37,975 bases of DNA, taken from the IMG/VR virus record IMGVR_UViG_2534681604_000008, positions 1 to 37,975 of that record. One strand, 5' to 3'. This DNA is from a virus (taxonomy: Duplodnaviria; Heunggongvirae; Uroviricota; Caudoviricetes). Positions 4,984-36,700 of this stretch are shown here, piece by piece. Under the pieces are notes generated by a model. That model had not been told where the DNA came from, made no database searches, and worked only from the letters and a program-made list of their open reading frames with translations. Numbering within the stretch: the first letter of the stretch is position 1; each line of letters opens with the position of its first letter. The translations under genes were made by a program, and so were the position numbers.

Positions 4984-5055
4984 GGGTAACTCCTTATATT
5001 TGATTGCATAACGAAAACGCCTCAAGTGAAGCGTTATTGGTATGCATATAAAAAA

Positions 5056-5080
5056 GCCCTCACACTGGAGGGCAAAGAAG
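5056..5080 (-). terminator. Intrinsic terminator in the pL operon between ral and cIII (tL-like, presumably N-suppressible)
   Basis: Minus strand GCCCTC-CAGTGT-GAGGGC stem-loop followed by TTTTTTAT. Confidence 0.45.
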
Positions 5081-5209
5081 ATTTCCAATAATCAGAACAA
5101 GTCGGCTCCTGTTTAGTTACGAGCGACATTGCTCCGTGTATTCACTCGTTGGAATGAATACACAGTGCAGTGTTTATTCTGTTGTTTATGCCAAAAACAA
5201 AGGCCACTA

Positions 5210-5410
5210 TCAGGCAGCTTTGTTGTTCTGTTTACCAAGTTCTCTGGCAATCATTGCCGTCGTTCGTATTGCCCATTTATCGACATATTTCCCATCCTCC
5301 ATTACAGGAAACATTTCTTCAGGCTTAACCATGCATTCCGATTGCAGCTTGCATCCATTGCATCGCTTGAATTGTCCACACCATTGATTTTTATCAATAG
5401 TCGTAGTCAT
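5210..5410 (-). CDS. ral: Ral-like restriction-alleviation protein
   Basis: 66 aa; position just downstream of N in the pL operon and the size match lambda Ral; sequence identity is from recall. Confidence 0.55.
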   Translation of the reverse strand: MTTTIDKNQWCGQFKRCNGCKLQSECMVKPEEMFPVMEDGKYVDKWAIRTTAMIARELGKQNNKAA

Positions 5411-5488
5411 ACGGATAGTCCTGGTATTGTTCCATCACATCCTGAGGATGCTCTTCGAACTCTTCAAAATCTTCTTCCATATCTCACC

Positions 5489-5815
5489 TCAAATAAGTGG
5501 TTTGCTGCCTAATTTCATTTTCTGGCGACCAACACAAGTCACACCCATTTCACTGCGTGGCTTGCTGTACCATGTGCGCTGATTCTTGCGCTCAATACGT
5601 TGCAGGTTGCTTTCAATCTGTTCGTGGTATTCAGCCAGCACTGTAAGGTCTATCGGATTCAGTGCGCTTTCTACTCGTGATTTCGGTTTGCGATTCAGCG
5701 AGAGAATGGGGCGGTTAACTGGTTTTGCGCTTACCCCAACCAACAGGGGATTTGCTGCTTTCCATTCAGCCTGTTTCTCTGCGCGACGTTCGCGGCGGCG
5801 TGTTTGTGCATCCAT
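5489..5815 (-). CDS. N: Antitermination protein N (lambda-type)
   Basis: Internal start gives MDAQTRRRERRAEKQAEWKAANPLLVGVSAKPVNRPILSLNRKPKSRVESALNPIDLTVLAEYHEQIESNLQRIERKNQRTWYSKP..., essentially lambda N with its arginine-rich motif; AGGAG RBS; nutL upstream. Confidence 0.9.
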   Translation of the reverse strand: MDAQTRRRERRAEKQAEWKAANPLLVGVSAKPVNRPILSLNRKPKSRVESALNPIDLTVLAEYHEQIESNLQRIERKNQRTWYSKPRSEMGVTCVGRQKMKLGSKPLI

Positions 5816-6134: not shown

Positions 6135-6431
6135 TCAGAAGCTATTTGGATTGCTTGGCCATTGCGGCAATTTTGATTCTACTGGGGTGTGTTTGGGTTT
6201 GAGTCCGTTTAAGTAGTCAAGGCGCTCAATGGCGCATTTATACATAGCAATCTGCTCTGATGACATGTCGTCGTATGACATGCCTTTGAACTTTTTAATT
6301 ATCGATTCTGCCTCATGTATAAGATTCTTCTTCCTCATGAGTTCAGCTGTATGCTTAGAGCTTACAGGAGATAACTTTGCCCATATGAAGCAGATGATTA
6401 CAACAGCGACTACTATGCCGGGTATAAACAT
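6135..6431 (-). CDS. Small membrane protein co-transcribed with cI at the rexAB/sieB position (candidate exclusion or abortive-infection factor)
   Basis: 98 aa from the internal ATG (MFIPGIVVAVVIICFIWAKL...), with one N-terminal hydrophobic helix and a charged soluble tail; GAGGA RBS 15 nt after the cI stop; terminator follows. Confidence 0.55.
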   Translation of the reverse strand: MFIPGIVVAVVIICFIWAKLSPVSSKHTAELMRKKNLIHEAESIIKKFKGMSYDDMSSEQIAMYKCAIERLDYLNGLKPKHTPVESKLPQWPSNPNSF

Positions 6432-6445
6432 TTGCTGCTTTATCC

Positions 6446-7132
6446 TCAAACTTTTGGCAGATCGTCCTGGTCTACGTACCTGGTGTGTTTCACAATAGCT
6501 GAAACAAAATGCATTTTATCAACTTCTTCAACAGGAAGAGTGATTGGGCGGTGATCACTGTTTATGCTACTAAACTGATAATCACCGTCTCTTGTTTTGT
6601 TCATGATCTTTATCATGTTGTGACCGTCTTTGGTCCTTACAAAGACTTCATCACCTGGATGTACTGGCGTATTTGGTTCAATAACAACATATTCTCCTGA
6701 CTGAATCCTTGGCCACATGCTGTCACCCTTAACCTTCAGACCGTAAGCATCTTTATCGCCGCTGTAGATGCTTAACCAACCGGATCTGAATTCAATCATA
6801 TCCACTGAGCCATCAACTCCCAAAACGGCTTCACCAATTACCGGAACAAAACCCGCACGAACGTTACCCGCAAACTCAAGATGGTCCGTAGCTCCAGCTT
6901 TACCATCTGCAAGCATGTCCATCCATCCGCGTGGGAGATTAAAAGATTTTTCAATTAGTTCCATCATATCGTCAGCAATGCGTTTTTTTCCGCTTTTTCC
7001 TTCCGGATACAGCATTCTGGAAACGTATGATGGTTCCCTTTCTATTCGACGAGCCAACTCTGAGGCCTTTCCATTACAGAATCGGTCTCTTATCTCTATC
7101 AGCCTTAGTCGTCTTTGTTCGTATTTATCCAT
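6446..7132 (-). CDS. cI: CI-type prophage repressor (HTH plus LexA/S24 autopeptidase domain)
   Basis: 228 aa; N-terminal HTH (ASELARRIEREPSYVSRML), Ala-Gly cleavage site (FAGNV), GDSMWP serine motif and a downstream Lys, consistent with RecA-stimulated autocleavage; divergent from cro across operators. Confidence 0.85.
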   Translation of the reverse strand: MDKYEQRRLRLIEIRDRFCNGKASELARRIEREPSYVSRMLYPEGKSGKKRIADDMMELIEKSFNLPRGWMDMLADGKAGATDHLEFAGNVRAGFVPVIGEAVLGVDGSVDMIEFRSGWLSIYSGDKDAYGLKVKGDSMWPRIQSGEYVVIEPNTPVHPGDEVFVRTKDGHNMIKIMNKTRDGDYQFSSINSDHRPITLPVEEVDKMHFVSAIVKHTRYVDQDDLPKV

Positions 7133-32808: not shown

Positions 32809-35013
32809 ATGTCAGATATCACCGCAAATGTTGTGGTAAGCATGCCTTCGCAACTCTTCACTATGGCGCGTTCTTTTAAAGCCGTAGCCAATGGCAAAAT
32901 TTATATCGGGAAAATTGACACTGATCCGGTAAATCCTGAAAACCGGATTCAGGTTTATGTAGAGAACGAAGACGGCTCTCGCGTTCCTGTTTCGCAACCA
33001 ATCATCATTAACGCCGCTGGTTACCCTGTATATAACGGACAGATTGCCAAGTTCGTAACTGTGCAAGGCCATTCTATGGCTGTGTACGATGCGTATGGTT
33101 CTCAGCAGTTCTATTTTCCTAATGTGCTGAAGTATGACCCGGATCAGTTTCGCCAGCTTGTTGAAGGTAGCAATGGTGCTTATTATATTGGATATAATAA
33201 TACAAACGTTGGCGTATATCTAAATTCTTACGGAGTGGTAGTTACTCCTGGAGATGACCTGAAGGCCGCTCTGGAAAGTGCCAACAATGGTGATACGGTT
33301 ATCGTTTCGGGGGATGTGACACTAACTCAGCCTGTTGTCATTAGCAAAGCGGTTAACATTAAAAGAGTAAACGCCGGCCGTATACTATGGTCTGGAACAG
33401 GCGCGGCAATCAGATATATTCTTGCAGTTAAAAATACTATTACCACCCCAACACAATTCTTACGTAGTCAAAATACAGCAACATTACCAGAGGGTCACGG
33501 TGTGGTCGTGGGGGATATGCTGGAACTCCATTCTACACAAGTCAGATACGCCGACGTCGATGGAGATTACACTTTCGGACAGTTTATTTACGTCGAAAAA
33601 GTGGATGGCAACACGATCACATTCCAGCCAAGTATGACTACCGGATTTACAACCTCAGAGATTATTGTATCGAACTCGTTAGAAGGCATGCAATTCGATG
33701 TAGAGATTATCAATATCAAACCGGCAACAGGCTCTGCTAACGGCATCCTTCTTGATATTCATGGCGCTCGCAATCTTACAGGGAAATTTCGCATTATTGG
33801 GAATGGTGATGAAAACTATGGCTTGGCCTTACAAGGCTATCACTGCAAACTTGATGTTGATGTGTGGAACATCAAATCTGGAAATTTCTCAGTTCCTGGT
33901 TACGGATTTAACTGTGTAGGCGATAGTATATATGTCAATCTGTCAGGTGGTAATTGCCGTCATGTGGGTGAGATTCCCGCAAGGAATGTGGTAAGTAATG
34001 ATATTCATTTCCACTGTAATATCACTAAGACGTTGGGCACTCCGTTATATATTTATAACGTAGGCTGGCACTCAAATGTAATTTATGCAAAGTTAACTGG
34101 TACTATTTCCGGTTCTGGCATGCTTGTTGCTGTGCGCTCTGGCTCCGGGGAAGTTAGTATGGAGTTCAACGGCGCTGACGACGGTTATGACTATGCCGAT
34201 ATCGTTGTAGGAGATATCTACCCAACATCTTTAAAGATCACCAAATGCAACTCTGGTGGCGTGAACGCACGTCGCTCTTTCATCCAGTGGAACGTCAAGG
34301 GACAGGGATCAAACTCAGGTGGATTGATTTTAGATAATAACACCTTCGTCGGGCCAAAGCGCATGATGCGCTTGTACGATGACTCTGGGGCAACGAGCAA
34401 GGCATTCCGAGTATACGCTTCCAATAACAAGGGTTCAGTAGTGGCTATCCACAACCGCGACCTTCTCAACGCCAACGTATACATCGAGCTGTCTAACAAC
34501 ACGTTGACATCATATGGCCTGGCTACATTCGCTGATTACATGGCCGGTGTTGATACAAACGGATGTAAAACATATGAAGTAAGGTCTACTAACAATAACA
34601 TTGACGATTCGGTAACAGCGGGTGTCTTTTCCTTCGATGGTTATATGGATGCGATAGTATTTAGTAGCCATGGAGACAAGAATTCAAACAGACCATTCAT
34701 AAAGCTTACGCCTACATATCTCGGCCGAGTTGATAGGTTTGATATTAACGGGCTTAATACTAATGGACGAATGACACTTACACCAACGGCGGCAACTGTG
34801 TATAACGATATAGGGCAGATTAGATTTTGTCGTATCGGCTTTGACTCTAATCAACCAATAGTAGTCGGCTTGTCTTGGCCTATCGTCTACACTGGAAATT
34901 CTTTCAAAACTACACTTGATGCCACACTTGTTAGTACAAAGCGACCTCAAGCTGGTAATGTCAACCTTTCAGGGAAAGCATTAAACTGGAATGGTACAAA
35001 TATTGCCATTTGA
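32809..35013 (+). CDS. Tailspike: P22-type N-terminal head-binding domain fused to a divergent receptor-binding domain
   Basis: N-terminus [56 protein letters not shown]... matches the P22 gp9 head-binding domain (recalled); the remaining ~600 aa are Gly/Asn/Thr/Val-rich, beta-helix-like, and unlike P22. GGAG RBS. 734 aa. Confidence 0.85.
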
Positions 35014-35045: not shown

Positions 35046-36700
35046 TTATAATGGGAGTATAATTCTTGATAGAATACTTCTTTTGCGATTTTATGGTTGT
35101 TTTCTGTTTTATCACCTGTAACAGATAATGCGTAATAATCACCAACCTTTTCAATCATGTATTTATTCGAGATGTTCTTGATAGCATGATCTAAAGTCCA
35201 TTTATCTTTGAATAAATACAAAGTTGAAGTATCATAAGCACCATTGTATAAATTAAAGAAGATGGATTTTTGTTGTTGTATCTTTGCATTCAAGCTGAAT
35301 CTTGCCATATAACCAAAATTCATTGATGCTTTATTTTTTGAAGCTATATAACCTATGTTTGACCAATCAAAATAAAAATCAATAGGCATCACAACCTGTA
35401 TTTTATCTTTGTTAGACATCAACGCATTAATATTGGTGTTATCCAAGCCCTTTGATATGTCTGTTATTTCTGAATATCTTTCATGTACTTTTGTAATCAT
35501 TCCATGAATATCATAAAGTTGCACGGCACAAGAAATTGCAACTATGGACAAGCAAAGCGCACGATTAAGATAGTGTCTAATGTAAATAATAAAAAAAGCC
35601 AAAGAAGCATAAATAAAGACCCAAATAAATCTACCTGAAGATCTAAAGATATTTACTGCTTTAGATACAACGCTCGGTAAATTAATGCTGAGAACATTAT
35701 TCCCATTAAAAGAGATGTTGTTTGAAATAGCGAATAGCAAAATCAAGAGACACATAACAAATCCTGGTATGCACCCCTTTCCAAAGCCTCTGTATATTGA
35801 AAAGCAGGCCACACCAACTAATAATACAATGACAACACCTGTGCCGAGATACGCAAAACCCTCATAGTCCAGTTTTTGGTGTGGCAAAGGATTTGTAAAG
35901 TTTGACACCCATGAATACATGGGGTTTATGAAAGCATTAAGATCCATGTGATACAATCCGAAACCACTACCATCAGCTCCATCGGCAATCACAAAATATC
36001 CAAGCGCATACATTGTTCCAGCCAGTGCAAGCATGGCAACAATAAATAATGAGGCCGCGCTGGCTATTGTTTTTTCTTTTTTTATTATCGACGTAGCAAG
36101 ATAAGCAACAAAAACAGAAAGTATCATTCCTGTGATGTAGAAGTGAATGGCAGAACTTATCGCTATCAGTAGCACCCACCTTTTATTGGAATTCTTCATA
36201 CTATAAAGAATGAAAGAGGCAATAATAAGAAAGTGTGCCGACAAAGCAAAGTGGCCCATCATTCTGAAAAGCATAATGGGAGCCAAGCAGAACAGCGCGG
36301 AGGCCACTAAAGAGTAAGGCTTATCATGCGTATTTCTATTTATTAGGTCATATGAAAATACGCCTTGCAGAATACAGCACAGTAATATCCATATACCTGT
36401 GTATTGGAATGTATCTGGAAGAGCGAAAGATACAAATTTGAAAATAATTGCCAGTAAGGGTATGGAGTCAGTAAATACTATTGAGCTACTAACCTCCATT
36501 CCATATGGTTCATTTAAACCAAGCGGCCACTGCAGTATCGGAGTGTTTCTAAAAAAATTCCATCCAAGCCAATGTTGCGCAGCATCTCCACTGCCAAACC
36601 ACTGAATGTTTGTTACATTCAAAATATTCATGCCGCCGCAAGCTATGAATATAAGAAAACCAATCAGTCCAGCTGCGATACGGTAATAGTTATTTTTCAT
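35042..36700 (-). CDS. gtrC: Serotype-specific O-antigen glucosyltransferase (GtrC-type polytopic membrane protein)
   Basis: 552 aa with many hydrophobic helices, visibly AT-rich, third gene of a gtrA-gtrB-gtr(type) operon. Confidence 0.7.

Follow-up and report, generated by a model that had tools for sequence, protein, structure and literature searches.

The 28-codon open reading frame (ORF) that lies between N and ral in the DNA analyzed here is, by its near-identity and position, the λ gene orf28 (lambdap47, NP_040623.1), already annotated; and, as judged from its pattern of codon substitution, it is a genuine protein-coding gene under purifying selection. The explanation which best accounts for the data as a whole, and which we consider very probable, is that orf28 is a translated early gene of pL, whose product is a selected, extremely acidic and aromatic-rich micro-protein of 22–30 amino acids (aa). 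Annotation of the ORF in λ dates back to the original sequence, and it is listed as non-essential and hypothetical; added here is the evidence that protein-level constraint extends over at least nine genera of the Enterobacterales and persists after the loss of ral. The first-pass annotation of this DNA had left open whether the ORF encoded a real peptide or was spurious, and the comparative data resolve this in favor of a real, selected coding sequence.

orf28 within the window and within λ

The window, i.e., the whole 37,975 nt stretch that was analyzed (IMG/VR virus record IMGVR_UViG_2534681604_000008), is a lambdoid phage or prophage of E. coli with an immunity region resembling those of mEp043 and Sf101. 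The orf28 gene (5394..5480, minus strand; ATG at 5480..5478, TGA at 5396..5394) encodes MEEDFEEFEEHPQDVMEQYQDYPYDYDY, a peptide of 28 aa and 3.68 kDa with 12 acidic, 7 aromatic and 0 basic residues and a computed charge of -12.4; tryptic proteomics would miss it because it has no Lys or Arg. It follows the N antitermination gene (5489..5815, minus; 108 aa; Pfam N36, E=1.5e-25), whose TGA stop (5491..5489) sits within the orf28 Shine-Dalgarno (SD) sequence GAGGTGAG (5483..5490, minus), a near-perfect match with GAGG placed 6 nt before the ATG; the gap from the N stop to the orf28 ATG is 8 nt. An ATG with a ribosome-binding site right after the N stop had been described in the first-pass annotation, and the translation given there for the ORF (minus strand, 5480..5394) matched exactly. 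The same annotation had the ORF overlapping the ral start out of frame, as we also find: the overlap with ral (restriction alleviation; 5210..5410, minus; 66 aa; Pfam Ral PF11058, E=1.6e-48; phrog_1055) is 17 nt (5394..5410), comprising orf28 codons 24–28 and the stop, with ral in the +1 frame. The ral ATG is within orf28 codons 24/25, and the orf28 stop comes 14 nt into ral, an arrangement which would permit termination-reinitiation coupling. The likely ral SD, AGGA (5419..5422, minus), is positioned in orf28 codons Q20–D21, 8 nt before the ral ATG, and the Q20 codon was CAG in 37 of 38 distinct core sequences.

A terminator-like hairpin with a T-run (5193..5218, minus), identified by consensus scan only, overlaps the ral stop, and the hairpin itself (5218..5203) is the first terminator-like site after N in the window. 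Two more terminator-like hairpins are present at 5016-5073 (minus), between ral and a cIII-like ORF, one of which is strong (GCCCTCCAGTGTGAGGGC followed by TTTTTT); the window is without an ea10 homologue between ral and cIII. A 104 aa ORF (6135..6449, minus) with a hydrophobic N-terminal segment, belonging to phrog_10450 (unknown function), is located between the repressor gene (6446..7132) and pL, where λ has rexAB, and is a candidate for a prophage-expressed exclusion or defense gene.

The window peptide was identical to NP_040623.1 at 27 of 28 residues, the sole difference being E4D (GAA to GAT), and in λ (NC_001416) orf28 (complement 34271..34357) overlaps ral (34087..34287) with the same 17 nt geometry; the first-pass annotation did not identify the ORF as this annotated gene. 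The peptide aligned with PHROG 16060 (unknown function) over residues 1–28 and profile positions 1–28 of 28 (E=4.6e-18), and the Providencia homologue matched the same profile (E=5.8e-11); each of the features assessed for membership in the λ family, i.e., a full-length profile match, the position relative to N and ral, and near-identity, was found. The region was present by megablast in 371 phage records, and gp43 of SfI is annotated as 'similar to lambdap47'. No match to the peptide was obtained in Pfam, NCBIfam or PDB, even at E<=10. In the original λ record (J02459.1) the orf28 CDS at 34271..34357 (AAA96576.1) is mislabelled 'ral(restriction alleviation;66)', duplicating the name of its neighbor.

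N and orf28 are separated in λ and P22 by a sieB cassette that is annotated on the other strand, whereas the window has the compact N–orf28–ral order that is common to HK544, BTP1 and many prophages. The sequence before orf28 in λ/P22 (TCCACTATTTAAGGTGA) resembles the N 3′ end that precedes orf28 in the window (CCACTTATTTGAGGTGA), the resemblance being located at 5481-5500 of the window, about 2505-2529 of L001 and about 1090-1112 of L083; thus, two copies of the N 3′ end seemingly flank the inserted sieB cassette, and the insertion site is likely a recombination 'boundary' for mosaic exchange.

Our search of the literature found λ orf28 as a deletion marker and as a non-essential gene, and found no functional study. 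It appears in PMC2327257 only as part of a deletion (marker), and in a CRISPRi screen (PMC10695390) its knock-down gave no plaque defect on BW25113 and it was scored non-essential. The orf28 spacer used in that screen maps correctly (λ 34314..34341). The spacer shown for lambdap46 (ral) in the oligo table is identical to the lambdap49 (N) spacer and maps inside N (λ 35387..35414); one supplementary sheet gives 'ral' an EOP of ~2e-4 with small plaques, and the main table gives 1.1. The ral knock-down results of PMC10695390 may need re-reading, unless this represents a table error.

Codon-level conservation of the orf28 frame

A 28-codon ORF is unremarkable by itself, because 41 ORFs of at least 20 aa occur in 2 kb here; it is the conservation that goes beyond chance. 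Relatives were gathered independently of the peptide as the DNA upstream of Ral homologues in phage records, species-representative genomes and contigs with diverged Ral; more diversity was obtained by taking Ral homologues individually and by using degenerate DNA patterns. The Ral search of viral contigs gave only 100%-identical copies, and the matches from the scan of species-representative genomes with Ral were mostly λ contamination. Peptide tblastn was run without the low-complexity filter, which masks this peptide. The open frame with its core motif preceded and overlapped ral in λ, P22, BTP1, ST64T and UPF_BP1, and did so equally in Cronobacter, Providencia, Yokenella, Pantoea, Erwinia and two uncultured lineages (L267, L268), as well as in Proteus (ATG or GTG start) and Kluyvera (GTG start); counting E. 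coli and Salmonella, the frame was kept in prophages of nine genera. The DNA upstream of the SD was unrelated among the homologue groups; of the 42 distinct upstream contexts, 39 had an SD-like tetramer at -15..-7. The first-pass annotation had held that its ORF would be discredited by a frame that was not conserved in related phages; the frame, the start, the SD and the amino acids were all kept across genera.

Variation was concentrated at third codon positions. The 221 intact 28-codon copies represented 41 distinct 87-nt alleles, in which the variable sites at codon positions 1, 2 and 3 numbered 6, 5 and 20 for the 22 codons that are not shared with ral. Pairwise Nei-Gojobori dN/dS in the orf28 frame was 0.08–0.23 where computable, individual values being noisy with only about 9 synonymous sites to count; for the two remaining sense frames dN/dS was mostly >1, with many pairs not computable. 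Synonymous sites were saturated between genera, and the lineages in the codon comparison are not independent. When the six frames were compared for seven diverged sequences, the pooled pN/pS in the orf28 frame was 0.14 with 0 stops, and this was the only one of the six frames both open and constrained. The wobble-aligned antisense frame contained 14 stops in the 7 sequences, i.e., two per sequence, and the remaining frames had pN/pS of 1.8–3.8; antisense coding was rejected on these values and stop counts.

Residues E7, F8, H11, P12, D14, M16, Y19 and Q20 were invariant in an alignment of 22 sequences, and four more were nearly invariant. The seven of these that are not Met were each encoded by 2 to 4 codons, with all four Pro codons being used for P12. 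Part of the alignment sample was fetched by motif-based DNA patterns, and invariance at the pattern positions is thus partly built in; the ral-anchored subset independently gave the same invariance. The conserved pattern consists of an acidic N-terminus with F5/F8, then His-Pro, then D-x-M-x-x-Y-Q-(D/E)-Y, in which the hydrophobic residues are spaced i, i+3 and i+6. Part of the conservation at the 3′ end (YQDYPY) may serve the ral SD and start.

Natural disruptions of orf28, which are expected of an accessory gene, were also seen. Viral contig L185 has a premature TAG at orf28 codon 20 with ral intact, and L149 and L151 share a 6-nt in-frame deletion in orf28. P0001 and P0005, which cluster 76 and 5 SRA-assembly sequences, respectively, are 89 aa fusions of orf28 codons 1–20 with full-length Ral, brought about by the loss of 1 nt from CAGGAC (the ral SD); and in P0011 an in-frame deletion has fused the whole of orf28 to Ral from W10. 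The three fusions may be real variants, or they could represent a laboratory construct or assembly errors.

Occurrence of orf28 and ral without one another

The overlap with the ral start was kept in all ral-linked homologues, at 11–17 nt, and each gene was also found without the other. Citrobacter-type prophages have ral without orf28; in its place after N is an unrelated 66 aa ORF (MAKITFGFCSAEKAHAVQKGIRAEGFRT...; L240/L241 1804-2004, L266 1304-1504) that had no PHROG match and that overlaps ral by ATGA. Kluyvera georgiana (L264/L265, about 1480-1503) has cleanly lost the orf28 coding sequence, and its ral starts with GTG exactly at the SD/start that is used by orf28 in Kluyvera genomosp. 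1 (L231). Phage As1 likewise has ral without orf28, and there sieB truncates the ral 5′ end. In L277, a metagenomic Ral copy, the first of four conserved cysteines is replaced (WCS to WSS) and orf28 is intact.

The converse arrangement, orf28 without ral, was found in L242/L248/L250/L262/L276 and in L259, L261, L272 and L279. In the first five, the gene next to N encodes MEEDFDEFDEHPDDDMS(R/L)YQDYED, and immediately beyond it come the hairpin and T-run normally found after ral; this hairpin (GGCTGCC..GGCGGCC TTTTTT) is directly 3′ of orf28 in L242, L259, L272, L276 and L279. A common junction, ...ACTGA joined to GGCTGCCTA, is shared by L259, L272 and L279, and L272 retains a ral remnant of 6 codons (MTTEAA and a stop). 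L261, which lacks the ral ATG, encodes the same 28 aa peptide as the ral-linked L233, with 4 synonymous differences in the last six codons; L272 and L261 differ by 10 synonymous changes and 1 non-synonymous change. For the ral-less copies the orf28 frame had a pN/pS of 0.01–0.19, against values of ~1 or higher in the other frames, and some of the divergence among them may predate the loss of ral. A gene kept under constraint without ral is not merely a ral leader, and the constraint in these copies argues that the peptide, its C-terminal tail included, is selected in its own right.

Possible roles of the peptide and its distribution

N, orf28 and ral would be made from the earliest pL transcript. 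Ribosomes ending N would expose or occupy the SD that holds the N stop, and would then translate orf28; a small predicted hairpin near the orf28 SD (CACUU/AGGUG) could mask it until a ribosome arrives at the N stop. The orf28 ribosomes would in turn terminate 14 nt inside ral, so that the three genes would constitute a translationally coupled cassette within the initial part of the pL transcript, which is probably N-independent. The selected product would be the peptide itself, with coupling into ral as a possible second role. Invariance at F, HP, M and YQ suggests that the peptide carries a specific binding motif, as opposed to bulk charge, and the invariant core EF-x2-HP-x-D-x-M-x2-YQ-(D/E)-Y probably forms a short amphipathic helix after the His-Pro, with acidic flanks. 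Its partner could be a host (or phage) protein with a basic or nucleic-acid-binding surface, on which the peptide would serve as a competitive inhibitor or modulator; we infer that it is most likely a small competitive ligand for a surface of this kind. It plausibly belongs to the same immediate-early counter-defense or host-takeover program as Ral. That orf28 is a Ral-independent immediate-early effector which neutralizes a host nucleic-acid-binding protein, e.g., a component of restriction or defense, is put forward tentatively, with the chances somewhat below even. Should a target be found, a micro-protein effector would be added to the λ early program; and should the effector role prove true, the best-studied of all phage genomes would have concealed a second counter-defense factor for 40 years, one carried by roughly one in six complete E. 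coli genomes.

The first-pass annotation had suggested that the peptide could be a DNA mimic or regulator, a possibility which the data neither strengthen nor eliminate. Its acidity was borne out (net charge about -12), and a match in Pfam, NCBIfam or PDB and a mimic-like size were not. The type I anti-restriction proteins Ocr (T7) and ArdA (plasmids) are likewise strongly acidic and early; they fold as dimers, exceed 100 residues and mimic an extended B-DNA segment. The size of a 28 aa peptide argues against extended DNA mimicry of this style, no membership in the Ocr or ArdA families was detected by sequence or profile (Pfam, NCBIfam, PDB, E<=10), and, unlike them, orf28 conserves specific F/H/P/M/Y/Q residues and not a charge pattern alone. 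Mimicry of the SSB C-terminal tail, which is acidic with an aromatic residue at its end, was considered and set aside: the orf28 C-terminus varies (..DYDY, ..YEY, ..YDH, ..YED, ..YEN) and the conserved part is internal. Kil (47 aa, acting on FtsZ/ZipA) and CIII (54 aa, an FtsH inhibitor) are small, non-essential pL peptides that bind host proteins. The orf28 peptide resembles them in being small, non-essential and encoded in the pL operon, a resemblance limited to the status of a small pL-operon effector; it is smaller, has no basic residues and is unrelated in sequence. Another phage peptide of <30 aa that is made early is T4 Stp, with 26 aa, whose action is on a type I enzyme (PMC12707154). 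Stp inhibits the type IC enzyme EcoprrI, thereby triggering PrrC, and its tie to type I restriction parallels the location of orf28 beside an anti-type-I gene; however, Stp is basic, whereas orf28 has a net charge of about -12. Homology with Stp was rejected (hhalign probability 0.54%, with the Stp sequence verified against T4-like genomes), and orf28 would work, at most, 'like' Stp.

The peptide could instead be an obligate partner of Ral, i.e., a subunit, chaperone or specificity factor in the alleviation of type IA restriction such as EcoKI. Almost invariably orf28 and ral adjoin and overlap each other, as is typical of stoichiometric partners; natural in-frame orf28-Ral fusions exist; Ral is mildly basic and Cys-rich and the peptide strongly acidic; and ral cloned alone had little or no effect in one study (PMC9410887). 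We nonetheless consider an obligate partnership to be unlikely, as each gene occurs without the other in several lineages and orf28 is still selected without ral. An AlphaFold2 model of the natural fusion P0005, aligned with Ral homologues, showed no confident packing (mean pLDDT 61.7, with 50–60 over the peptide part; pTM 0.40). A weak effect of Ral when cloned is also its classical behavior.

Alternatively, the peptide could modulate N, as a polyanion that binds the N arginine-rich motif and buffers, stabilizes or inhibits the antiterminator. The N stop falls within the orf28 SD in the window, BTP1, Cronobacter, Erwinia, L242, L259, L260 and others, and the ral-less phages have N and orf28 as the only genes before the terminator hairpin. 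But the sieB cassette separates N from orf28 in λ and P22, spacers or another ORF do so in Providencia, Proteus and Pantoea, and a position after N is expected of any first pL gene, making a role in modulating N improbable. Both this role and the obligate partnership with Ral are weakened by the separability of orf28 and ral and the spacer variation.

We regard as quite improbable that orf28 acts only as a coupling leader, bringing ribosomes to the ral start or unmasking it, with the peptide being irrelevant. Like coupling upstream ORFs, orf28 has its stop a few nt past the ral start and contains the ral SD; every ral-linked homologue keeps the 11–17 nt overlap, the replacement 66 aa ORF in Citrobacter-type prophages also overlaps ral (by ATGA), and the K. 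georgiana ral is placed directly on the orf28 SD and start. In addition, a predicted long-range helix, AUAUGGA (5482..5476):UCCGUAU (5415..5409), spanning 5409..5482 (minus), joins the orf28 and ral start-codon regions. The helix was present in the consensus with 0 compensatory pairs and a covariation term of 0.03, i.e., without covariation support. A peptide needed for coupling alone would be unconstrained, and would be dispensable once ral is lost; in contrast, the pooled pN/pS was 0.14 with eight invariant residues encoded by varied codons, and the gene remains intact and constrained (pN/pS 0.01–0.19) in lineages without ral. Coupling may well be a second role of orf28, and it cannot be its only role.

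Finally, that the ORF is spurious and lies within a conserved non-coding element (RNA structure, terminator or ral regulation) or an opposite-strand gene has very little probability and appears largely refuted: the ORF is short and passed over by PGAP, the folding energy of the region is mildly below that of shuffles (z = -2.16), and there is a 127 aa antisense ORF (5129..5512, plus strand), but variation in the orf28 frame has a three-nucleotide periodicity, the antisense frames are interrupted or unconstrained, the start codon and SD persist even where the DNA before them is unrelated, and explanations by an RNA element were rejected with no Rfam match in the orf28 region and no compensatory changes in the start-to-start helix.

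As to the distribution of orf28, its region was found in 878 of 5426 complete E. coli genomes, where it has no PGAP annotation; as a caution for annotation, orf28 is below common gene-caller length limits and is skipped in hundreds of E. coli prophages. A search of plasmids gave only λ-like records. Copies of λ ral/orf28 at 100% identity were seen on short, low-coverage contigs of unrelated bacteria (L209-L224, L227, L229-L232), including Pseudoxanthomonas, Nocardioides, Shewanella, Paenibacillus, Bradyrhizobium and others; they were also seen in 48.5-kb 'plasmids' of Stenotrophomonas and Paenibacillus (H119-H121) and in the 48.4-kb 'Campylobacter phage CJLB-4' (MW057783.1). These 100%-identical copies in unrelated bacteria look like λ contamination or mislabelled public records.
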